The notes beneath the pieces were generated by a model that saw only the letters and a list, made by a program, of their open reading frames with translations, was not told the DNA's origin and made no database searches. The translations under genes and the position numbers were made by a program. From Hydrolagus affinis (taxonomy: Eukaryota): DNA of 64,000 bases. Positions 1,638 through 42,803 of the stretch are shown piece by piece. The stretch spans positions 1 to 64,000 of the forward strand of contig JAAILG010001019.1 of NCBI GenBank assembly GCA_012026655.1, in the 5' to 3' direction. Numbering within the stretch: position 1 is the stretch's first letter; each line of letters begins with the position of its first letter.

Positions 1638-2673
1638 AGATACCTAAAGGTTCACCACAGCCGGGAGGCATGAATGGAAATGTCCAGTCAGCTACCAGCA
1701 GTGGGCAGCAACTCTCTGCCATCCCTCCTCCAAGCACCAATAAATCCTGGCGTAGCAAATCGATGAATGTCAAACACACTGCCACCTCATCCATGCTGAG
1801 TGTAAAGCAGCCCAGTCCTGTGACATCTCCAACCCCCTCCACTGATAGACTTCGAATTCCTCCACCAGAGACAGCAAAGGCCCCATCCAATGGACAAAAA
1901 TCTATGTTGGAGAAATTCAAGTTGACTAGGACTTCATCAAGACCCCCCATGATTCCAAGTGCAGGACCCACTGATGGTGGCAGAGACGAGGACGTTTTCT
2001 CCGAGTGTGGGGAACTAGATGTTTGTAACAGTGCGATTAACAGTGGGGCATCTGCAACAAGTAGTCCAAAAACACAATTAAAGGGAACATCCCAAAAAAT
2101 AGGGAGCAAAACTATTAGCAATAAAAAAAACCTACCACAAGCGAAGGAGAAAGAGGAGAAAGACAAGGAGAGAAACAAAGGATTGAAAAGTGGCAAAGAA
2201 GAAAAGGAGAAGGTGACTGAGGCGTCTAGAAAGAGCTCAAAAATTGCAAGCTTAATCCCCAAAGGAGCCAAACCTGTTGGAGTCAAAAAAGAAAGCGCTA
2301 TCCCGGCTTCTAGTGGGATACCTAAACCAGGATTGAAAGTATCAACAGGAAAGCCAGCATTGGTGCCCTCACCTGTAGGAACAAAAGATGCAGAAAAGGC
2401 CAGGACTGCTAAAGGAAGCCAAAGCCACCCATTACAGAAATCTCAGGCTGATGGGAAAGCCTCTAGCTCCAGTAGTATAGCTTCATTGGAGGGGAGAGGG
2501 ACAAGCCTGGCTTCTTCTCCAGCTTCCTCCTCAAGCACTACTGCACTTTCGGCTTCCATGGTGAATAGTAGTGGACAGATGATCGGGAACACCAGCATAG
2601 TTGTCCAGCTCCCTCAGCCACAACAGCAATACAGCCATCCCAACACTGCCACTGTTGCCCCTTTCATGTACAA
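1638..2673 (+). CDS. NAV3: Neuron navigator 3, large internal coding exon (Ser/Lys-rich region with SxIP-type motifs)
   Basis: Acceptor tttactctttgtttcag|AG (phase 1) and donor CAA|gtaagt (phase 2). The open frame encodes WRSKSMNVKHTATSSML, GQKSMLEKFKL, KIASLIPKG, SSGIPKPG and HPNTATVAPFMY, matching recalled vertebrate NAV3. Confidence 0.93.
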
Positions 2674-6915: not shown

Positions 6916-9071
6916 TAATGCCCGGTCCCAGTGGCCATTAATAATATACAAGCCTTGACCATGCGTGTTGACAGGCTATTCAACAGCTGAGCTTGATCTT
7001 ATCCTTACCTCCATGTCAACCCATAGGCATCTCCCATAGGGGCACCAGAGGATGGTGATCAGGAGGTGGGTCACTGGCTCATTTACTTCTTCATAACCCA
7101 GAGGACCGAGTTCTATTATAATAATCCATCTCTGGTCTGCATGGCTCAAATTCTCACTGCATATACTCACTGAACCGTTAGGGAGAGCATTTTCTCTCTC
7201 ACATTATGCCCATGAGCACATTATCTGTAGAATTTAACCAGCGCTAAATAAACCTAATGTATAATCATTTTCAATTAAGATCCTAGAGTTTATGCTTGAT
7301 TATCTTCTGGAATGGGGGATAGTTTTGCAGAGTTTTGACCCCTTAAAAGTGTTAGCTTTGATGGTCCATTCCCTCAGGAGAGGAATGTAATGGATTGAGA
7401 AGATAGCGTGAATGTGCAGATTGTACTTGCTCTTTTGAATGGTGCAGAGGGAAATGAACCAAATATCCCTTTTATTATTCCAGATTTTCTTACAATACTA
7501 ACTACGACAATTTCATTTTAGCACTCCAGCCATCTAGGTGTTTGGTGCCAATTAGGACTGTATTGCCAGTCATTTGTGTAAGTTAAAGCTGTCCCAATTC
7601 ATTTCATCTGGAATATTTCCAATAGGCAGAGGTAAGCTATTTTCTCTATGTTGAGGTAGCTGTCAACAAAAAGTCCATAGATGGTCGAACAATGTTCATC
7701 CTCTGTGTCATCCAGTACTCTCACTTTTAGAATTCTTAAATTGTTCTTGGCTGCTTCTTCTTGTCTAAAGCAATTAAAATCCAGACCTTTTGACTGGAAT
7801 CTTTGCCAAACCTATCCTGCAGTCTTTGAACAGATATTTATAAAATGACATAGGAATGACTTGGTGATGGTTTATGGCAATCATTTGATGAATATAGTTT
7901 TGAGCCCAAGCAACAATGCTATTTCAGTCTATTCTATGCTATTCTTCCAGAATACTGTATATAATTGATTTTGTCAGTTTTCAAATGACTTTCCAGATCA
8001 CAAGATTTTACACCATGACTAAAAACAGCATTGGCACCTTTGGCTGATTTCCTTAACTAAACCACAGGAAGACTATTCCATTCACAGAGAAGTTCAAGAA
8101 CCTATCTTCCCACCTAGATGAAAGACTTGTATAAAAATGCAATATTGAACTGATCTTCTATTAAATTGTTAGTATAGATACAGCACACATTTTTTGTATA
8201 TTCTTGTAAATTATTAGAATTCAAAAAAAAAAGGCAGTGCCTGTTTGTGCATTTTTCTTTTAGCGACAAAACGTTCTAAAAATTATGAAAATATCAGAGT
8301 ACAAAGTAGAGGAAGAAGTAGAGGCACAATCTAACCTTTATTATTATGAAGCCAATTGGTGGGGTCATCATGTCCTAATTTGTAAGAAAAGAACTATGGG
8401 ACAGAATTATAACCAAAGAAAACTATTTTACAAGTACACTGTAAGGAGTAAAATGTTCATACTTGAGATGTTAACTTCTGAAGTACAAAATTCAACTAAT
8501 GTATATAAGCAAACAATACACAGGTTTCTAATTCAATAGAGTGGGGGTAATGGGGGTAGCTGCCAAGACAGGAGGGAGGCGGAAATGATCAGAGCAGCTC
8601 TTGTTCATGGAACTGACCATTTAACGTCAACAAGTTAGACTGATTCCCCCTGCTTCACCCTGTCCTATATTCTTGCATGTAGAGAACGTTACTACAGCCA
8701 GCCAATCTATCATGATCATGTGTATTTTGAATTAAATCTCTTGAATATCTGGTGAGATTCCAGGTTTCTTCTCTTCTCTCAAAACCTGCAGTTTAGTGGA
8801 TTTGCTCCAAAGAGAGAGGCTTATATTTAGGAGTTGATGAATGATTTTTGGAGATGATTTACAGTAATCACTGTTGCGTGGCATCCACGAGGTGGGATTA
8901 GACTTTATTTCACAACCGGGAAGCATGATTTTTCAATTTTGTTTTCGAATGAACAACCTTGGTTAATAGAGGGACAATCCTAACTCCATTTGCCAGGATT
9001 TCATAATGTATTCAAAAAAGAAACATATTTTATAACCTTCATTATCCGTATACCATAACATAATAATACAA

Positions 9072-9392
9072 CAATCACCAGAAGTTTCACCAGATGTTTG
9101 CAAGTGCCTCAAATGTGGTTACCAGGGTTGCAGTCGAAACTCGCAGGATCAACATTCTGTGAAGCATTCCCGGACAACTCGCTCAGATCCACACTGCATC
9201 GTGGTTAATCTGGAGTCATGGAATATTTGGTTCTATGAATGCGATGAAGAGCTAACACAATGCAATAAAAATGCTCTTTCTCAAACACTGGATTTTCTGC
9301 AGAAACATGCCACTAAGACGGGCTCAGGTTTAACTTTCAAACCATTGAAAGTTCGAGATGAAATTTCTGATGGCAGTGAAACAATGAGATAG
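9072..9392 (+). pseudogene. USP45: Processed (intronless) fragment of a USP45-like (USP16/45 family) deubiquitinase, ZnF-UBP domain
   Basis: One frame reads CLKCGYQGCSRNSQDQHSVKH...PHCIVVNLESWNIWFYECDEEL..CNK..L.Q.LDFLQKHATKT. This closely parallels recalled USP45 CLKCGFQGCGKNSESQHSLKH...PHCIIINLSTWIIWCYECDEKL..CNKK.L.Q.VDFLQKHASKT. It has no start codon and no catalytic domain, and ends at TAG 9390-9392. Confidence 0.85.
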
Positions 9393-9779: not shown

Positions 9780-9895
9780 AACTTACTCGGAAAATGATGG
9801 TGGTTTTGTACCATCTGGTGACCCAAGTGCCAGTCCCACAAAAATGGATTCAGTTTACAGCAAGACTGCCAAACAGTGCCTCGAGGAGATTTCCG
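9780..9895 (+). CDS. NAV3: NAV3 internal coding exon (116 nt)
   Basis: Acceptor atttttcag|A and donor TCCG|gtaggt. Encodes (K)TYSENDGG...SPTKMDSVYSKTAKQCLEEIS(G); SKTAKQCLEEISG fits NAV3 rather than NAV2. Phases 2 and 1 fit the neighbouring exons. Confidence 0.93.
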
Positions 9896-11294
9896 GTAGG
9901 TGATGCAGTCTTACTAATTAATGCCAGCGACGCACAATGTTAAAGTTAAAGAAATGCAGGCTCATATTTTCATTCCTTTTCTTGTGAACCAAGCAAGATG
10001 GTTTTGACTAGAGAGAGCTAAGAGGTTGCTCCAAAGGCAAAAAGGGGTGGGGGGGAGATAAAAATGCCTTTGCTCCTCAATTTCCCAGTTGCAACAACAA
10101 TAGCAAAATTACATGTGTATAGCGCCTTTCAAGTTGGGTGGACTTTCCGAGGTGCTGCACGCTGGACTGTTAATTTTCAACATATGTTAAAAAGAAGACG
10201 TGATCTGAATGTTGTATGATATTATTGACTTAATAGCTAGCAGGATAATAATAATAATAATTATCCTTGCATTTGATATATTACATCTGTCATGTCAGGA
10301 CTGCTACGCAGATGTGCTGTCGTTGATTGTAATGAAACTGGTGTAATCTCCTAGCCCAGCAGTTTGGAAAGATGATGTCTTGTGGAGTATTTTTCTAGTA
10401 ATGATATTCTGCAGACACTAGTTATCCTGTTCATTTCTGGAGGAGGTAATAGACACCGTACCAGCTGCTTTTGCTTGAGGTCTGTTCTACATATGCACAA
10501 GTCTGCGGGGAAATGCATCTTCAGATCTCTAGTCCTGCTTGAGATTTATTAATATTTGAAACCTGTGGAGTTGTAGATAGTTAATGTGATTAGTTCAGGA
10601 AAGCAATGGAAACTCGACCTTCCTTGAAAAGTAAAATTCTTATTTAATTAATAGTATATTAATAGTATCTAAGTAACCTTAGATCATTGTGTAGATCAGC
10701 AACAGTGCAATTTGATAAAGACTAACCCTGTACAAGATTGACTAGGACTTTTATCAGGACCTGGGCTGATAAATCTCTTATGTCTTCTTCATTCTGATTT
10801 GTTCTCCAGAACTTTGCAGGCTGTCATCTTGCAAGCCTACACTAGTAGTTGGGAATGCAGAAGTTTTGCTTCGTAATACTATATCACTTTAAATCTTGTG
10901 TGAAAGTGTGAAACCTGAAGGTCATATCCGGTATTTGTTCAGATGTCCATATTGATCGAGTTGCAAGAGTGCCACTGGCAAACAGATTCCGTGGCAGCTG
11001 GAGACAGAAACTAAGCCTTACAGAATGATTTTTACTCCCAAGTAAACAGCCCCGTGGTCCAGTATGGCTAGTATTTGGCAAATGTATCCCTTAGGACATT
11101 ATGTTGTGTCATTGTACCTTAGTTCCCATGGTTTGAGGCAGCAGAATGAACAAAACTTCATCTCCATCCATACCTATCCTGTAATTTCCCAACCAACAGT
11201 TCCCAACCAAAATATCTTACATTCTTAGGTTGAAGATCATTGCTTTATAATGTGAGAACAAAATGTTTGAAACAAACTTTTTTGGGATTTTCAA

Positions 11295-11657
11295 ATTGGG
11301 ACACTTGCTAAAGCAGAGTGGCTTCAGTCTAGAAAAGAAATGCCTCAGAGGAGAACTTCGAGAGATGTATATGATTATAAATGGAATTAAGAACGTAAAC
11401 CCAAATGGAGACTTTAAGATGCACCAAGATAGCAGAACAAGAGGGCACAGAGTCAGAGTAGTAAAGGGCAGTTTTAGGATGGAAATCAGGAAATATTTTT
11501 GCCAGAGTGTTATTAATGATTTGAATGCATGATTGAAACCAGGAAACCAGACTCTAAGAAACAACTTGATGCTGTAATGGAAGGACGTTAGAGTGGGTAT
11601 TTTCTGGATGGATGAGATCAAATGGGCCGAAGAAGTTTCTTCATCCAACCTGATTTG
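11295..11657 (+). mobile_element. Older CR1 LINE 3' fragment
   Basis: FSLEKKCLRGELREMYMII...SRTRGH...FRMEIRKYF resembles the CR1 ORF2 C-terminus, followed by a 3' UTR-like atgggccgaa. Confidence 0.8.
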
Positions 11658-11670
11658 ATAGAATAAATAA

Positions 11671-13732
11671 ATCTCCCTGGATGACAAGAGCAATTGGGGT
11701 GAAAGTAAAGCAAAAAAAAGGAGGCTTATGATAAGTGTCAGGCCTAGAATACAGAATTCAACCAATCGGAATATAAGAAGTGCAGGAGAGAACTAAAAAA
11801 GGTAGTTAGAGGGGCAAAAAGAATGCATAAGAAACAATTAGCAGGTAACATTAAAGGGAATCCTAAGGTATTTTAGAAACATATTAAGGGTAAAAGATTG
11901 GTCAAGGGTAGGGTGGGGCCAATAAGGGACCAAGGAGGAAATCTTATTGTGGAGGCAGAGGGCATGGCTGATGTACTGAATGAGTACTTTGCCTCTGTCT
12001 TCACAAGAGAAGAAGATGCAGCCAATGTCACAGTATTGGAGGACAGTGTAGTAGAAATGGATACGATAAGCATAACCAGAGAGGAAGTACTAAAAAGGTT
12101 GACGGCGCTCAAGGTAGATAAGTCACCCGGTTCGGATGGGATGCATCCTTGGTTACTAAGGGAAGTATGGGAGCAAATAGCATAGTCTCTGGCCACAATC
12201 TTTCAATCTTCCTTGGACACAGGGGTGGTACCAGAGGACTGGAGGGTTGCTAATGTTACTCCCCTGTACAAAAAGGGGTAGAAGGACAAACCTGGGAACT
12301 ACAGGCCAGTCAGTCTAATGTCAGTAGTGGGCAAACTTCTAGTAGTCTATAATCAGGGACAAGATAGATCTTCACTTAGAAAAATATAGGCTGATAAAGG
12401 ACAGCCAGCATGGATTTGTTAAAGGCAAATCTTGTCTTACAAATCTGATAGAATTTTTCAACGATGTAACAGAATGGGTGGACGAGGGAAGCGCAGTTGA
12501 TGTGGTAGTTTACATGGACTTTCAAAAGGCATTTGACAAAGTGCCGCATGAGAGGCTTATTAGGAAAATAGAGGCCCATGGCGTTAAAGGGACAGTGGCA
12601 GCGTGGATCCACAACTGGCTGCGAGACAAAAAGCAGAGAGTTGTGGTGAGTGGCTGCTTTTCAGACTGGAGGGAAGTATGCAGTGGCATCCCCCAGGGAT
12701 CAGTTTTAGGACCACTGCTCTTTTTAATGTATATTAATGATTTGGATTTGGGTTTACGGAGTATNNNNNNNNNNNNNNNNNNNNNNNNNNNNNNNNNNNN
12801 NNNNNNNNNNNNNNNNNNNNNNNNNNNNNNNNNNNNNNNNNNNNNNNNNNNNNNNNNNNNNNNNGATAGTAGCCATCTGCAAGAGGATATAGATAAAATG
12901 GTAAAGTGGGCAGACACATGGCAGATGAAGTTTAATACAGAGAAGTGTGAGGTGATACACTTTGGGAGAAGAAATGAGGGGAGGCAATATAGGCTAGATA
13001 GTACAATTTTAAAGGGTGTGAAGGAACAGAGAGACTTGGAGAATTTGTGTTAGTGTCTCTTTGAAAGTGGCAGTACAGGTAGACAAAGCTGTTAAGAAGG
13101 TATAAGGCTTTACAAATAGGGGTATAGAATACAAAAGTCAGGAAGTGCTGATTAACCTCTATAAGACTTTGGTTAGGCCTCAGCTGGAGTAGTATACAAT
13201 TCTGGTCACCACACTTTAGGAAGGATATTAAGGCATTGGAAAGGGTGCAGAGGAGATTTACTAGGATGGTACCAGGAATGAGGGACTTCAGCTACGAGGA
13301 AAGGCTAGATAGGCTAGGATTATTCTCTCTAGAACGAAGAAGATTGAGAGGAGACCTGATAGAGGTTTATAAGGTTATGACAGGTTTCGACAGGGTGTAT
13401 AGGGAAAGATTATTTCCACTGGTGGGCGAATCAGTGACTCATGGTCACAGATTTAAAATAGTTTCAAAATGAAGCAGAGGGGAGCTGAGGAGAAATTTTT
13501 TCACTCAGCGGGTTGTTCGAATCTGGAATGCATTGCCTGAATAGGTGGTGGAGGCAGATTCCATAACAGCTTTTAAAAGGGAACTAGATCTTTATTTAGG
13601 AAGAGCAGGTTTGTTAGGTTATAGGGAGAGAGCTGGGCAGTGGGATTGAGTTGCTCTTAAATTGCTCTTTTCAAAGAGCCGGCACAGATTAGATGGGCCA
13701 AATGGCTTCCTTTTGTGCCGTATAATTCTATG
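11671..13732 (+). mobile_element. 5'-truncated CR1-clade LINE (ORF2 reverse transcriptase plus 3' UTR), disabled
   Basis: [54 protein letters not shown] and FSLERRRLRGDLIEVYK motifs. Internal stops and frameshifts. CR1-type 3' end (gggccaaatggcttcc...ttctatga). Confidence 0.95.
12765..12864. other. Assembly gap (100 N) within the CR1 element
   Basis: Run of exactly 100 N at the position where the RT catalytic xADD motif is expected; probably a placeholder length. Confidence 0.98.
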
Positions 13733-20299: not shown

Positions 20300-21273
20300 T
20301 CCACAAAATTACTTGCTACATTATACATTGAGCTAAAGAGCGAACGAGCAGAGAGTTAAGGGGATCCATCGTAACAGCCCTGTTTTGTTCACCCATATCC
20401 TGTCCATCAGCTCTGTGTTGTTTGTAATAGTCTCTGCCAACGCTTTGGCTTTTTTTTTGTTTAGGCAGCCGCTACACGATCTACAGCCACTGCAGTGGAG
20501 AGGGAAGAGGGATAGGGTTGAGATGCAGGTTGAATACTAAAAGAGGTGTGCCTTGTGCCGAGCTTGCTTCACTGGCTCATTTCATTTCTTATCAAGCTCT
20601 GATGTGGGTGCTATAGTTACAGCAGTTAGCTGCAGCTCCTCCAAGAAGCGATCGCTGCTGCGTCTTGGACTAGGAGTTGCAGTTAAATATTTTTCCCTGT
20701 GAGAAGAATATTCTCAGGGCCATCTTTGATTTTATTTTCATTTCATGCTAAACCCATCGCACCGGGTGTCGGGTGGGGTAGGGGAAGGGAGGGAGAGCTC
20801 TGGCGAGGGATTGAGACAACATGTAGCGGTGGTGTTCTGTTGCTCTGTTGAAGATTGTCATTTTACGAAGAGATATGTTATAAGTTTGGCTTTTGGGCAT
20901 TTTTTTCTGCACAGTGAGAAGCTGCTCAACTCTCTCTCTCTCTCTCTCTCTCTCTGCCTGAACACACATTATGCTTTTTTAAGTATCACTGCAGTGGTAG
21001 TGATTTGGGGGCAGCAGCTGTGATCTATGGCTGCACTAGCATAAGTTGTGCGCTTTCCTCAGGTATGGATTTGCTTCTCGATGAGGCTATAATTGTGGTG
21101 GGACAGCCAGCCTGAGCAGGTGGGTAGAATGTCCAGGTTCAGCACCGGTGTCTGGGAGAGTGAAGTGGGAGACATTTGCAGCTCCATCGAGCTCGATTTG
21201 ATCAATTGTAAACGTCTGAATCTTCGTCAGCCACATTCTGAAAAAACGAGGGCGCAACGCGAAAGCTGGGAAG
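20300..21273 (+). promoter_or_regulatory. Putative internal promoter and 5' UTR for the NAV1-like first exon
   Basis: Repeat-free segment directly upstream of the exon, with more CpG than the flanks, a (CT)n tract and upstream ATGs. In-frame stops upstream of ATG 21274 argue for a first exon rather than a cassette exon. The TSS cannot be located from sequence. Confidence 0.4.
20930..20955. repeat. (CT)n microsatellite
   Basis: Seen directly. Confidence 0.95.
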
Positions 21274-21820
21274 ATGCAAAGACAGACAGAACTATCTGTG
21301 TTTAGAAACTGGAACATGGGGCATGGCATTTCTCTTCGGAAGCAGAAATCTTTGACAAACCTCTCAGTATTGGATGAGAGGGAGAGTGTCCTCTACTCCT
21401 TTGAAGGCAGCTGGGCAGATGACACAGCTAAACCCTGTCAGCCTTTCAGCCGGGAGTTCAGATCGCAGGCCATGTCTTTATCGAGGGCACTTTCCAAATC
21501 GGAGCATTCACTCTTCCAGGAAAGCAGCCTTGGCCAGGAAGGTGGTAAAGTGGCTCTGGCTGTCAACAGCGGTAAGCTGAATAAACTTTCTAAATGCCAG
21601 TGGGCTGAAGTGAAACCCACAAATAAAGTTTCTGAAATGCGTGCTGGAGATGGCAGCAAGTCAGATGATGAAATTCTGTCTATCAAGTCTAAGGTTTCTA
21701 GGAAGCAGAAGACACAGACTGAAGAAGGATGCCTTCGTGAAGGAGTTGCACAATTAGATGAGGACATTATTTTGACCATGCTGGGAGACCTAGAACAAGT
21801 CCTTTACACAAATATACTTG
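21274..21820 (+). CDS. NAV3: Putative alternative first coding exon of NAV3, homologous to the NAV1 N-terminal exon
   Basis: Stop-free 182-codon frame from AAGATGC to donor CTTG|gtaagc (phase 1, compatible with the acceptor at 25574). Motifs LRKQKSLTNLS, LSKSEHSLFQ, AEVKP, KSDDEILS and LGDLEQVL match the recalled NAV1 N-terminus. Confidence 0.8.
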
Positions 21821-23847
21821 GTAAGCTGTGGGATTTTATTCTGTAGTCAGTGGGTTTTATTATAAAGGTAAAACTAAATTGAATTGGAGTGACTGCTTCT
21901 TTTAAAATTCATAGTGTTTTAGTATTCAGTTTATTTTGCACTGCAAAGATATGAAATATCATATCAATACTGTATATGAGATCCACAGGGACACATTAAA
22001 GCAAATGTTAGGAAACTGAATAATGAAAGTTTATTACAAAATTAATATTTGTAAATTACAAAGTGATTGAAAATGAAAGCCGTACTTGTTAAAGAGGGCA
22101 GAAAATATTTTTTTTCTTAAGAACTGTAAAGATTAAAGATTTGTTTAATTAGCCCTTGCTTTACAGTGTTCCCACTTCTACTGTATGTGATAGTTTGCGG
22201 CAGGTACAGTGTCTACCGAACAGTTGCTCGTCTCATTGAGTAAATAAAATGTTAAAATGGTTCTTTTTTGACAGATGGTAGGATTACAGTAAGGAGCTAA
22301 TGGACTAGATCAATTGCAGTAACAATATTATAATACAGACCATACATTGAATATTCTAGCAATCTGCTGCAGATTATTTTAATGAGTCTGTGCGGCAATG
22401 CAATTGTTAACTCTCTTCATTCACTGACTGCCATCAAGCATTAAGGAAATGGAAGACATGGGGAACTGGAATCCACACTGATCAAAAGCACGGTAGATTT
22501 CTGCATCCATCTAAATCAGTCTACATGATAAATAATAACAGATAGAGAGGAATGCAAATCTTGAGCCAATTGCTTAGATTACTTCCTTGTGGTCACTCAA
22601 AACCATCAATTGGGTCTTGCACTGAAGATTTGGTTGAGCAATATTAATTATTAAAGCCGCAAAGTCCTGTAATGTTTTTAAATGTTTTGTATAAATTGCT
22701 GACAGTATCTTATTTAAGGAGCGATATCGAGGACGTTGCCCAAATAGATGTTAATGCATGTAAGCCTAGTATTGCTTAATGAATAAGGAGGTTAAGACTG
22801 TGTCGTATCCATGACCTCCTTTATCCCCTTGCTCTTTCCTTTCCTGCACTTATGATGCCATTTCCTTTCCAAGAGCCACCAGCTGAACAAATATCAAAAG
22901 CCATGGCAGTAGTTTTCCATTTATATCAGTTGAATTCACATCACAATCCTCACTTCAAAATCCTATCAAATCAACTGCATGACTTGCAAATAGCAAGTTG
23001 AAATGGGCAGGTCATTTTCACATGCCTTTTTAAATTTAATAAATCTTTTTGTGGCTACCTAGCATCACATATATAATCTTACTGCATTCCTTGTCTTTTA
23101 TCCATTGCTAAAAAAAAATGGTGGAAACCTAAATTTAAGCTGCGACGTGAAAATGGTGTAAAGAGAGACTGAATGTTGGTAACGTTTGCTAAAAGTGCCT
23201 TGTATCACAAATGGTACGTTTTAAAAATTAATGATTTGAAAAGCACTCCATTTTTCTGGAAACCGAGTCTGCCATAGGAATAGTAATGGAGAAGAAGGTG
23301 TCTGCTCAGGATGTTTCCATGTTAAGGCACCTTTGTCGTCAATTGCTTGATTATGACTCTCCGTTCTCTTTGCTGTATACCAAACGAAAAGTACAGTCAA
23401 TGTGCGAGGCACAGGCATGTGTTGTGCATGCATAATGCATATAATTATTCATTTAATAATCACTTTTTAAAAAATGATATCATTACAAACTATGTTTCTG
23501 TTTTTGACTTGTACCACATAACCTGATGGTTTCATGAAGAAAAATGTTCTGAACCATTCTTGGCAGGATTGGTGCCTCCAGTCTCTCACCCACATTTAAC
23601 TAAAATCTGAAATATTAAACCCTAAGGAGTTAACACTTCACATGATGTTGCTTCGCCAAATCCTCATCGTTGGGGTCTAACATGCAATTTACATTTAGAA
23701 ATCATTCAAGTATCAAATTTGAATTTTATGTGTGTGTTGGAAATCTATTCCCCCTCCCTCACCCCCAACACAAAAACATGGAGGGGAATCTTTCTCTGCC
23801 GCCATCCAGCTAATTTATATTCGGTACATCAGGAACTTAATGATAAT

Positions 23848-24150
23848 CAATAATCTTTGCATTTGATATAGCGCTTTATCACATCTTCTAGATGTCTCAA
23901 AGCGCTTCACAGAATATACTGTAAAGTGAATTGATTGTATATTTGTGGGGGAAACGCGACAGCCAATTGTGCACAGCAGTGTCCCACAAACAGCCGTGGA
24001 TTGAAAATGACCAATTTGTTATAGTTTTTTGAGGGATTATTATTAAGTGTGTGGAGTAAGGACATACTTGCCCAAGGATTCGCCCTGGAATTGAACCCAG
24101 ATCTCCTCGCTTGCAAGGCGAGTGCTCCAACCACTGAGCTACAGGACTCC
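23848..24150 (-). mobile_element. Full-length tRNA-derived SINE (family A in this window)
   Basis: Minus-strand head GGAGTCCTGTAGCTCAGTGG...CTTGCAA...GGTTCAATTCC (Pol III A and B boxes, Ala-TGC-like loop), core tgtttgtgggacactgctgtg, and tail atatcaaatgcaa(a/g)gattatt. Confidence 0.9.
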
Positions 24151-24249
24151 ACTCTCCAATTTCTCCATTATAATCTATACATAAGACCTGAGTGTGATTA
24201 CTGAATTCGAGCTTTTAGAAACTGTTGTACCTGGGTTGCATCTATCTGT

Positions 24250-24587
24250 ATGGTAGCACTCTCGCATCTCAGTCAGAGGGGTGTGAGTTCAAACATCATA
24301 TCGGGACTTTGAGCTCATAGTCCATGCTGAAATGTCAGCCAAAGGAGGTGCACCACATAGTTGGGTCTGCCATCCTTCAGATGAGGTGTTAAACCAATGT
24401 CCCATTTGCTTGTTTGGGACATTAAAGATCATCTGGTACTATTTGAAAAGAGAAAGGAGTTTCTCCTAGTGTTTGTGTTCGTCTACAAATACACAGTCAC
24501 TACACCTTGCAGTAAATTCCTGTAAATCACTTGGAGATGTCTCGACAACATGATAATGTGCCATATCAAATGCAAAATTATTATTGT
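24250..24587 (+). mobile_element. SINE family B
   Basis: tggtagcactctcgcatctcagtcagagggg...ccttcagatgaggtgttaaacc, collinear with 49333-49727. Confidence 0.7.
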
Positions 24588-25209
24588 AAGAACATAACCC
24601 TTCATTTCACTTTCTCTTTCCCCATTAATTAACTTTTCCTAAAAACAAAAATTCTGGATACTGTACTTCTAAAAGCTATCTGTCAGCATTTCATTCTTCT
24701 CATAGTGCAGGGAAAATAATTCTCTGGAAACTAAAAGATTCCAGTTTGATGTGGTTCCTATTTCAAGAGATCTGTGATTTATTTTTAGTATTCGATGGCA
24801 TAAGAACTAGGTGTAGCGGGGGACAGCTGTCAGGAATTTGACAAAAATTTACTGCTGAGAGCAAAGAAATGAATTGTACTTCAGATCTCTGCAGGATATT
24901 GGCATTTCGGCCTCCTGTTTTGTGCCTTTGGTATTCATTCTGTTCTACAGCCCTTCAGTTGTCACCTCCAGCTCAGGTGCCTAGCCAGCGGTGTTAAGTG
25001 CTTTGAGATTTGAAGGGTGCTGTATACAGTACACGTAAATTGTATTGCATTATAATGCGCAACAATAGGCAATCGATGGATATTTTAATATGATATGAAT
25101 TAAGTTCAGAAGGCGCTATTTAGGATAGAGAGGATGGCCTTGGGTTTGATAAAATGTGGTTGTGTAACATAGTGTGGTTTGGAGTAGAGGTATAGGATAT
25201 GAAGGGATT

Positions 25210-25521
25210 TATATTAATAATCCTTGCATTTGATGTAGCACTTTTCACATCTTTAGATATCTCAAAGTGCTTCATGGAATGTACTGTGCAGTGGATTGAC
25301 TGTATATTTGTGGGCGAAACAGGGCAGCCAATTGCGCACAGCAGTGTCCCACAAACAGTCGTGGATTGAAATGAACAATTTATTGTTGTTTTTTATTCTT
25401 GAGGGATTATTATCAGGCGTGTTGAGCAAGGAAACTTGCTCAAGGTTTTGCCCTGCCAGGAACTGTACCCAGGTCTCTCACTTGTAAGGTGAGGACTCTA
25501 ACCGCTGAGGTACAGGGCTCC
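25210..25521 (-). mobile_element. Full-length SINE family A
   Basis: Collinear with 23848-24150. Confidence 0.9.
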
Positions 25522-25573
25522 AGGATTTAAGTAATAATGTGAGGCTTTTATTGTTCATTTCCATTGTTTACAG

Positions 25574-25682
25574 GAGAAGATCCAGAAGCCAGGAGAATGA
25601 GGACAGTGAAGAACATAGCAGATCTGCGGCAGAATCTAGAGGAAACTATGTCTAGTCTCCGAGGAACCCAGATAAGCCACAG
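25574..25682 (+). CDS. NAV3: NAV3 internal coding exon (109 nt, coiled-coil-like segment)
   Basis: Acceptor ccattgtttacag|GA and donor CACAG|gtaggt. Encodes (G)EDPEARRMRTVKNIADLRQNLEETMSSLRGTQISH(S). Read manually; too short for the ORF track. Confidence 0.95.
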
Positions 25683-25787
25683 GTAGGTATTGCTTTGCTG
25701 TATTGAGGTGTACATTATCATGATGTTTGATCGCTGCCTCTTAATGTGACCTGGAAATGACTGGCTCTGACAAAGATCCTTTTAATC

Positions 25788-26095
25788 ATAATAAGAAGAA
25801 AAAGAAGAATCCTTCCATTTGATATAGCGCCTGATCACATCTTCTGGATATCTCAAAGCGTTTCACAGATTATACTGTAAAGTGAATTGACTGTATACTT
25901 GTGAGCAAAACATGGCAGCCAATTGCACACAGCAGTTTCCCACAAACAGTCATGAATTGAAGTGACCAATTTATTATTGTTTAATTTCTTGAGGGATTAT
26001 TATCAGGCGTGCAAAGTCAGGAAACTTGCCCAAGGTTTCACCCTGCTGGGAATCCAACCCGGGTCTGGAGGCGAGTACTCTAACCACTGTACTCC
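25788..26095 (-). mobile_element. Full-length SINE family A
   Basis: Collinear with 23848-24150. Confidence 0.9.
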
Positions 26096-27591
26096 TTTTA
26101 GACCCGTTGTTCATAAAAAGTCATTTGTCTTCTGGATAAGATTAATATTTGCCATATATTGTTCTGTTACTTGGGTCTTGTTAATATATGAGTACTGCAT
26201 ATTGGAATACCTGAATTGCAGTAATATTAAGTACTATTTGTGGTATTTATTAACCAGATTTTTTATGAAATCCAAACCATACAAATTGTGACCAGATATA
26301 CTTCCAAGTCAATCCATAGGTTCTCTTCACCCCTCTGAACTAATTCCAGAAAGAGGTTCCAGCAAATTGACTGTTGTCCTGCAGAGAAGTAACTGCAAGT
26401 TAGATAAGTAATAATTCTTCAACCGCCTTTCTTGTTGGGAGGGCCTCTCAAAGTGCTTCACAGGATACACTGCAAAATGTGGGTGATTTTGTAGATCCCG
26501 ATATTGCAGGTCCCTCTTTCATTCAAATGGCTGTATGTAATTGATATATTTTGAAGTTATTACTTAACTATTAAGTCAAAATTAATCCATGCTTCAATAT
26601 GAATAATGGTCAGCTTTAAATTGATATGGATTTCGGGATAGGATTTCAATAACAACATAGCACTTACTGTTGGCAGCTTCAGTTTCCTCCTTGTTTTATT
26701 GAACTACTACATGTGCTGCTATTGAAACCAAGCCAACATTACACCTCTTTATCGCATTTTAAAACATTAATGCCTTTAAAACTTCTCTACACTTGCCAAT
26801 TTTGGAGACTTCTAAACTTGACACAGGTGGGATGTGAGAAAGGCAGGGTATCAGCTTGATTTCTTAGATTTGCTTTCCTTTTGGATTCAAATTCAAATCT
26901 TAACATCTAAGACTTGAACCTCAAAAGAAGGGGAAACAATGCTTTCTGTCTTACAAAAGAGACTTTTGGTAGCCTGTCTAGGATTTGGGAAGTTTCCAAA
27001 CAGACCGTTTACAAATCGAAGTCAGGTGTCCACAAGCAGATGGTTGGCAATCCTTTTCTATTCCCATATATCACTTCCTGTTCCACTTTGTCCAGCTGGA
27101 AAGGGAACAATGGTCAGAGCTGAGCCACGGTTGAACTCAAAACTGCTTCATGATTCCCTAATAAATAACAAAAAGGAAATCCTTTGATTTGATATAACGC
27201 ACTCTTTCACATTGGAAGCAAGTCTCTAAACACTTTGCAGGATTTTGTAGTCGAGCGCAGAGGGCAATTTGCACACAGTAATGTCCGGGAAATAGCCATG
27301 AAGTTAATAACTGGTGAGCTGCAGTGAAGCCATTCTGGCCACATTGATTTGTCCCTCGAGACAGTTGTGCACTTCTATCAATTGCTTTCTTTTCTAGATT
27401 AGCCAAAAGATACTTAAACATGTTTCTGGTGGAAGAAGCAACGTCTTTTTTTTTTACAATTTAATATCGATTTGGCACGTGAAGAAATAAACATTCTCAT
27501 GAGATTAACACCATTATTTTTGCTCGTGCTGTAGAGTTTATTATGTGAATCGAGTCCAGAAGAATATTGATTGTGTTCTTTGTCTTGGCAG

Positions 27592-27981
27592 CACTTTGGA
27601 AACTACATTTGATAGCACCATTACCACAGAAGTCAATGGGAGAAGCATGGCAGCTGTGTCCAGCAGATCTACATCCATGTCATGGAGGCTTGGCCAAACA
27701 AGCCCACGGCTTCAGGCTGGCGATGCTCCTTCTCTAGGTACCGGTTATCCTCCTCGAGGCAACGCCAGCCGCTTTATACACCCTGACACCTCTCGGTTCA
27801 TGTATACCACTCCACTCCGAAGAGCTGCGGGATCACGACCTAGTAATGCATCCTCGATGGATATTCCCGAGAAAGGGGGTTCTGATCTTGACATGGCACC
27901 TGTTGATGCGGACCTGACTGGTTATATGAGCGATGGGGATTTACTGGGGAAGAACACGAGGAGCGACGACCTCAACAGTGG
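27592..27981 (+). CDS. NAV3: NAV3 internal coding exon (390 nt)
   Basis: Acceptor ctttgtcttggcag|C and donor GTGG|gtaagt. Encodes TLETTFDSTITTEVNGRS...WRLGQTSPRLQAGDAPSLG...GYMSDGDLLGKNTRSDDLNS(G). Confidence 0.95.
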
Positions 27982-42683: not shown

Positions 42684-42803
42684 GTACATGACTGACGGAG
42701 GGCTTAATCTGTACACTCGCAGCATGAACCGAATCCCAGACGTGACGGCCACCCGCGATGTCATACAGAGGGGTGTACCTGACGTCTCAGCAGACACAGA
42801 CAG
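42684..42803 (+). CDS. NAV3: NAV3 internal coding exon (120 nt)
   Basis: Acceptor tctgtttttgcag|G and donor ACAG|gtaagg. Encodes YMTDGGLNLYTRSMNRIPDVTATRDVIQRGVPDVSADTD(S). The next expected exon (WDDSSSVSS) was not seen in the window. Confidence 0.94.

Follow-up and report, generated by a model that had tools for sequence, protein, structure and literature searches.

Canonical NAV1, as in the human Q8NEY1 isoforms and in Callorhinchus milii (P0003), is a Navigator protein without a calponin-homology (CH) domain, the N-terminal domain of actin-binding type. According to the excerpt of a review (PMC9877351), Maes 2002 paired NAV2 with NAV3, NAV1 having lost its 5' end; the word "promoter" does not occur in that review. 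This pairing conflicts with Lamb 2021 (PMC8040251), in the excerpt of which NAV3, NAV1 and NAV2 are quadruplicates A, B and C, the first genome duplication having separated the pair (A,B) from the pair (C,D). The excerpt of Sanchez-Huertas 2020 (PMC7480110) gives SRIP and SGIP as the main EB1 sites of NAV1 and maps its actin-binding region to residues 424-762, past the part encoded by the first exon. An internal start that yields a Navigator without CH domain has also been proposed for a short Nav2 transcript, which begins upstream of exon 13 (PMC2843687, excerpt), probably in a later intron than the one considered here. The excerpt of PMC7005187 held nothing relevant.

Here we analysed a window of 64 kb at the start of contig JAAILG010001019.1 (C1019) of a chimaera, where the host gene is NAV3, a gene of nerve guidance. 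A previous sequence-only reading had proposed that an intron of this gene hides a first exon of NAV1 type. With a probability that we put at about 0.8, this exon (21274..21820) is spliced to a shared NAV3 exon, is a homolog of the NAV1 first exon and is likely an ancient alternative start used from a putative internal promoter, which would give a product of about 1,850 residues without CH domain.

Exon layout of the NAV3 locus

By protein comparison, the exons starting at 25574, 27592 and 42684 are 79-88% identical to catshark NAV3 (P0301), whereas the 27592 exon reaches merely 45-48% against shark and chimaera NAV1. The first exon common to the long and short forms (25574..25682), delimited by splice sites and protein matches and predicted to contain a helix, is followed by the shared exons 27592..27981 and 42684..42803 (79% and 87% to P0301, respectively), and NAV3 extends past the window end (C1019:67957). 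All NAV3 exons given here lie on the plus strand. Two further genomic copies of the first shared exon occur, on contigs C25 and C3632. The C3632 locus is NAV1; that on C25 we take to be NAV2, as the paralog left over and on account of a motif. A second Navigator-type CH exon is found on C560, and AAA-region exons are also present on contigs other than C1019.

Upstream, exon 1638..2673, which ends HPNTATVAPFMYK, and exon 9780..9895 were recognised by their identity to the sturgeon NAV3 model P0293 (60% and 63%, respectively) and by their splice sites. The former, which is not part of the short form, contains several SxIP-type motifs; five are present in the frame 1613-2677, the first straddling the exon edge. 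The latter is the last exon exclusive to the long form and, since it ends in phase 1, it can use the acceptor at 25574, as can exon 21274..21820.

The exon of interest begins with an ATG at 21274 (A at -3) and remains open for 547 nt, that is 182 codons plus 1 nt, up to the donor CTTG/GTAAGC at 21820. Joined to the acceptor TTACAG/ at 25574 across a phase-1 GT-AG intron (21821..25573), it continues into the shared exon without a change of frame. The closest in-frame stops on the 5' side of the ATG are found at 21217 and 21199 (57 and 75 nt upstream). The uninterrupted frame, the start context, the upstream stops and the phase-1 donor had all been described in the sequence-only reading and were recovered when we re-read the sequence; the in-frame join, also claimed there, was confirmed in silico and by a contig of run X1 (see below). 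When the bases of the exon were shuffled 5000 times, no shuffle had a plus-strand frame open from end to end. Its codon usage is not separable from chance (77 of 500 shuffles as high) and Pfam holds no family for 21274..21820.

Homology with the first exon of NAV1

The exon shares 43% identity with its NAV1 counterpart in this genome (E 3.6e-34) and 37% with human NAV1 (E 5e-22), and the NAV3 and NAV1 exon profiles match with a probability of 99.9% over 182 columns, so that the similarity to the NAV1 N-terminus is significant over the full length. The NAV1 blocks named in the sequence-only reading are present, in the same order, in the same-genome NAV1 exon and in human NAV1. In this genome, the NAV1 exon, 94% identical to Callorhinchus milii NAV1, and the NAV3 exon both have phase-1 donors placed after the aligned last codon. 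In canonical NAV1 and short NAV3, the first coding exons are homologous from end to end, the following intron has the same position and phase, and a CH domain is absent; they differ in that NAV1 is another gene, whose exon extends further at the N-terminus and contains the EB1 motif SRIP. An open frame immediately 5' of the NAV3 ATG, 21220-21273, aligns with the N-terminal extension of NAV1 and, from this alignment, is perhaps the remnant of a longer ancestral exon.

In an unrooted tree of 39 exons, from which one near-duplicate catshark row had been dropped, 16 NAV1 rows and 23 NAV3 rows are separated by a 100/100 split. Cartilaginous and bony fishes are present on each side, and the window exon groups with NAV3, on a short end branch that fits slow evolution. 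Since both fish groups stand on each side of this split, the exon and its gene were duplicated together, prior to the diversification of jawed vertebrates.

Canonical NAV1 had also been said to lack the CH domain. Indeed, we did not find a NAV1 CH exon: the Navigator-type CH first exons in this genome number two, and because the assembly is fragmented the absence of a third is not proven. However, NAV1 is not purely a short form. Three post-CH exons are present, at C4787:18159, C4787:34755 and C3632:45109 (the last one weak, E 5e-5), and in 59 of 179 proteins with the NAV1 junction our exon does not precede the junction, the shark proteins among these 59 using exons homologous to 1638-2673 and 9780-9895. 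NAV1 thus retains post-CH exons of the long form and appears to be without the CH exons alone. The account given in the excerpt of PMC9877351 is matched in that the NAV1 CH exon is likewise not found here, but differs in that NAV1 keeps three post-CH exons and that it usually starts at an internal exon which was inherited rather than newly gained. The donor of the NAV1 long-form exon C4787:34755-35759 is apparently GC rather than GT.

Annotation and distribution of the short form

A protein search with the window exon found 477 proteins among 1291 candidates. Among the 120 of these 477 matches that were listed, at least 79 have a NAV1-type junction, at least 31 a NAV3-type junction and at least 10 no junction, and a NAV2-type junction was not seen. 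By a strict pattern, 30 of the 31 NAV3-type matches listed start at the exon Met. When the bilby exon was used instead, we obtained 93 proteins, 89 of them of NAV3 type, and 80 of these 89 start at the exon Met by the strict pattern; among the other nine, three begin at the exon's own Met off the pattern and six carry upstream sequence. The carriers named are catshark, sturgeon, arowana, turtles, birds, lizards, bilby and many placental mammals; neither jawless fish nor invertebrate chordates are among the names listed (120 of the 477 matches, plus the 93-protein search).

The human form corresponds to RefSeq NP_001424948.1 / UniProt A0A2R8YFX5 (P0259), of 1842 aa. It has the orthologous exon, with the same Met and the same junction and 41% identity over the exon, and a CH domain is absent among its precomputed Pfam families. 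It differs by a score of 65 bits on the NAV1 profile, compared with 139 for the chimaera exon, which has more NAV1-like blocks. In a protein atlas, the human NAV3 exon gave a lead, to be read as a lead only, to a "Neuron navigator 1-like" cluster (0.81).

The short NAV3 isoform is already annotated, from catshark to human, and is new for this animal. The sequence-only reading was consequently wrong in calling the exon hidden, since NAV3 models from catshark to human (NP_001424948.1) start there; it was right that NAV3 here encodes the short form, the exon being real and its start conserved in NAV3 models. In a literature search, outside which the 2002-2004 cloning papers lay, we found no paper on this NAV3 form, on the NAV1-first-exon homology or on a NAV2 counterpart, and none characterising the human short NAV3 form.

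A probable NAV2 counterpart and the age of the two-form layout

If NAV1 and NAV3 are sisters from the second duplication, as in the excerpt of PMC8040251, the exon that they share predates only that second duplication. Their sharing it is therefore insufficient, and only a NAV2 exon can place the layout earlier than the first genome duplication. The long-form and shared exons of NAV2 are separated by 8.8 kb without gaps, in which a 40-exon profile found nothing, and the best score of the combined NAV1+NAV3 profile in this intron was 0.9 bits, which is not significant. Loss of the exon from NAV2, first suggested by the null profile, became unlikely in view of the homologs and the profile match described below.

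The longest frame of the NAV2 intron starts with an ATG at C25:182535 and runs for 544 nt to a phase-1 GTAAGT donor (C25:182535-183078). This candidate, first chosen by eye, is one of three plus-strand ATG frames of at least 150 codons in 163 kb, and it lies in a CpG-rich patch (observed/expected 1.0-1.1 vs 0.51). Its codon usage is not separable from chance (331 of 500 shuffles as high). Compared as a single sequence it gave a probability of 1.7%, and E values of 0.13-2.4 with profiles that hold NAV3; the protein atlas gave no usable match. A search of 1.84 billion representatives with the NAV2 exon returned two matches, one a Logan protein (44%), the other a model of the teleost Aldrovandia affinis that joins the exon to the shared exon of the paralog, and a tetrapod homolog was not identified among these representatives. 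The exon is conserved in P0302, P0304 and P0303, and the homologs keep the SRIP motif and the last block.

A NAV2 profile built from four sequences, two of them near-identical, matched NAV3 with a probability of 83% (E 8.7e-6) over 24 columns; the score was 40.5, compared with a maximum of 18.4 in column shuffles (0 of 246 as high). Among 5739 frames, the best non-self match of the NAV2 profile was the window exon (16.3 vs 6.6 bits). The comparison of the NAV2 and NAV1 profiles was not significant (0.7%). The NAV2 exon agrees with the NAV3 internal exon in position, phase and conservation, and from these comparisons the two are likely homologous.

The same data bear on another scenario, in which the exon had a single origin on the NAV1+NAV3 branch after the first duplication and NAV2 recruited its own exon independently, the last helix being merely similar. 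Such a history would suit the scheme in the excerpt of PMC8040251, where the first duplication separates quadruplicates A and B from C and D. It would also suit the NAV2 exon, from which the N-terminal blocks are absent (447th of 5739 frames on the profile of these blocks) and which gives no match to the NAV1 profile. However, the NAV2 exon sits in the same intron, in the same phase and with a similar length, and its 24-column match to NAV3 lies above every shuffle. In addition, its SRIP stands 62-64 residues before the last block, compared with 66-70 in two measured NAV1 exons, and the NAV2 homologs, found independently, score 18.1 and 15.4 bits on the NAV3 end-block profile, compared with 10.6 for the chimaera sequence. 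We consider independent recruitment unlikely, while leaving it a sizeable minority share.

As shown by the tree, the two-form layout predates the NAV1/NAV3 split; in view of the NAV2 comparisons, it likely predates the NAV2 split as well. The earlier proposal that the layout is older than the duplications thus holds for the homology of NAV1 and NAV3 but not for the dating drawn from these two genes alone, and it is the weaker match of NAV2 that carries the older date. It is on the whole probable that a single ancestral vertebrate Navigator gene had both a long CH form and a short form with an internal exon, and that all three genes inherited them. Canonical NAV1 would then be the ancestral short form, the short form of NAV3 would be conserved minus an EB1 site, and that of NAV2 would have kept SRIP in fishes. 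This evolutionary reading and the NAV2 counterpart appear to be unreported.

Splicing and start of the exon

Run X1 comes from organism A, a related species that is about 93% alike, and its status as RNA is a guess. One contig of 924 letters lies on 20976-21821 of the window, and its 28 loose letters are those of 25575-25602, a string that occurs once in the window. The X1 contig carries the predicted 21820-25574 junction and skips the intron; this is one contig from one run, and the 29 letters past the joint are below the 31-letter bridging rule. The opposite end of the contig stays colinear with the genome as far as a CT microsatellite near 20927, which it enters. The leader is accordingly placed at 20927..21273, with an approximate 5' limit as the contig ends in the microsatellite, and since it is colinear with the genome no splice is used across the roughly 350 nt before the ATG. 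It contains 5 upstream ATGs. In all, 10 upstream ATGs are found between 20523 and 21129, one of which begins a 58-codon frame that overlaps the exon start. Run X2 gave an unspliced contig spanning the donor at 21820, run X3 a contig across 20965-23869 that agrees with the assembly, and the raw-read runs X4-X6 next to no reads on the exon.

The exon might instead be mainly an internal cassette placed behind the long-form exons. Amniote NAV1 models do splice upstream exons into the homologous exon, as do the six of 89 NAV3 models mentioned above. Against such a role, in-frame stops lie 57 and 75 nt upstream, the sole pyrimidine-rich AG in 20800-21330 precedes further stops, the spliced contig is colinear 5' of the ATG, and most NAV3 models begin at the exon Met. 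We regard the cassette as improbable and an internal first exon as the preferred reading. The AG in question, at 20913-20914, is located just 5' of the CT microsatellite (20923-20964). It could serve as the acceptor of the exon for a non-coding upstream exon, and the true first exon would then be further 5'.

When the X1 contig was compared with the window, we observed 25 differences in 547 coding positions and 35 in 298 leader positions (p 2e-4), the 35 having been counted from a table and the 25 obtained by subtraction from 60; the sole gap of the contig falls in the leader. Coding divergence is thus below leader divergence, and as regards dN/dS the comparison is limited to the 5 of 25 coding differences that were displayed, of which 4 are synonymous. 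Signs of purifying selection on the coding part of the exon are supported by these data. A decaying relic, or a recent NAV1-derived copy in chimaeras, is very improbable: the window exon does score 139 bits on a NAV1-only profile, compared with at most 90 for every other NAV3 exon, but both readings are contradicted by a frame open from cartilaginous fishes to human, by the lower coding divergence, by the existence of a spliced contig and by its place on the NAV3 side of the 100/100 split.

Predicted product of the short form

For the internal first exon, transcription would begin inside the intron that follows the last long-form exon. The exon would then join the first shared exon in phase 1, as shown in the related species, and translation would begin at the conserved Met. 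In the predicted product, a leader stands where the long form has its CH domain and the SxIP-rich exon; it is mostly disordered and carries short conserved blocks, and its single helix adjoins that of the shared exon. Indeed, the peptide is predicted to be disordered save for a C-terminal helix (residues 163-180), and in a lizard model with the two exons joined, three residues separate it from the helix predicted for the shared exon. AlphaFold models (pTM 0.19) were uninformative on the packing of these two junction helices.

Canonical NAV1 has its SRIP at position 172, within the homologous first exon. The motif is present in 16 of 16 NAV1 exons and, at the same place, in 0 of 24 NAV3 exons; the downstream SGIP is retained in human and catshark short NAV3. 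As the NAV3 exon has no SRIP, short NAV3 would follow microtubule plus ends more weakly. By its motifs, it would be a NAV1-like protein minus one EB1 site.

Consequences and neighbouring features

Alternative promoters are an ordinary kind of gene layout and the isoform is already in databases, which limits the surprise. Nevertheless, these results revise the account in which NAV1 simply lost its 5' end, and the contribution of the CH domain becomes testable inside a single gene. From chimaera to human, a NAV1-like NAV3 protein would stay intact in experiments that target the 5' end of the gene. In the excerpt of PMC11231287, zebrafish morpholinos were aimed at the start codon and exon 2. The homozygous stop p.Trp332* given there would fall, by the rodent long model P0292, in an exon of the long form only, and the other six variants in that excerpt would fall in the shared part of NAV3.

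Three other features of the window were noticed. Some 390 bases ahead of the small NAV3 exon, an intronless plus-strand frame (9036-9392) matches Pfam zf-UBP (E 6e-13). It lacks a start codon close to its 5' end and is soon followed by a stop, and it resembles a fragment of a processed pseudogene derived from a ubiquitin-specific protease. Broken reverse-transcriptase-like frames, presumably of CR1/LINE type, surround the sole N gap of the window (12765-12864) at about 11200-13500. Finally, several copies of a high-copy, heavily covered interspersed repeat are present in 23850-26500, on both sides of the shared exon.
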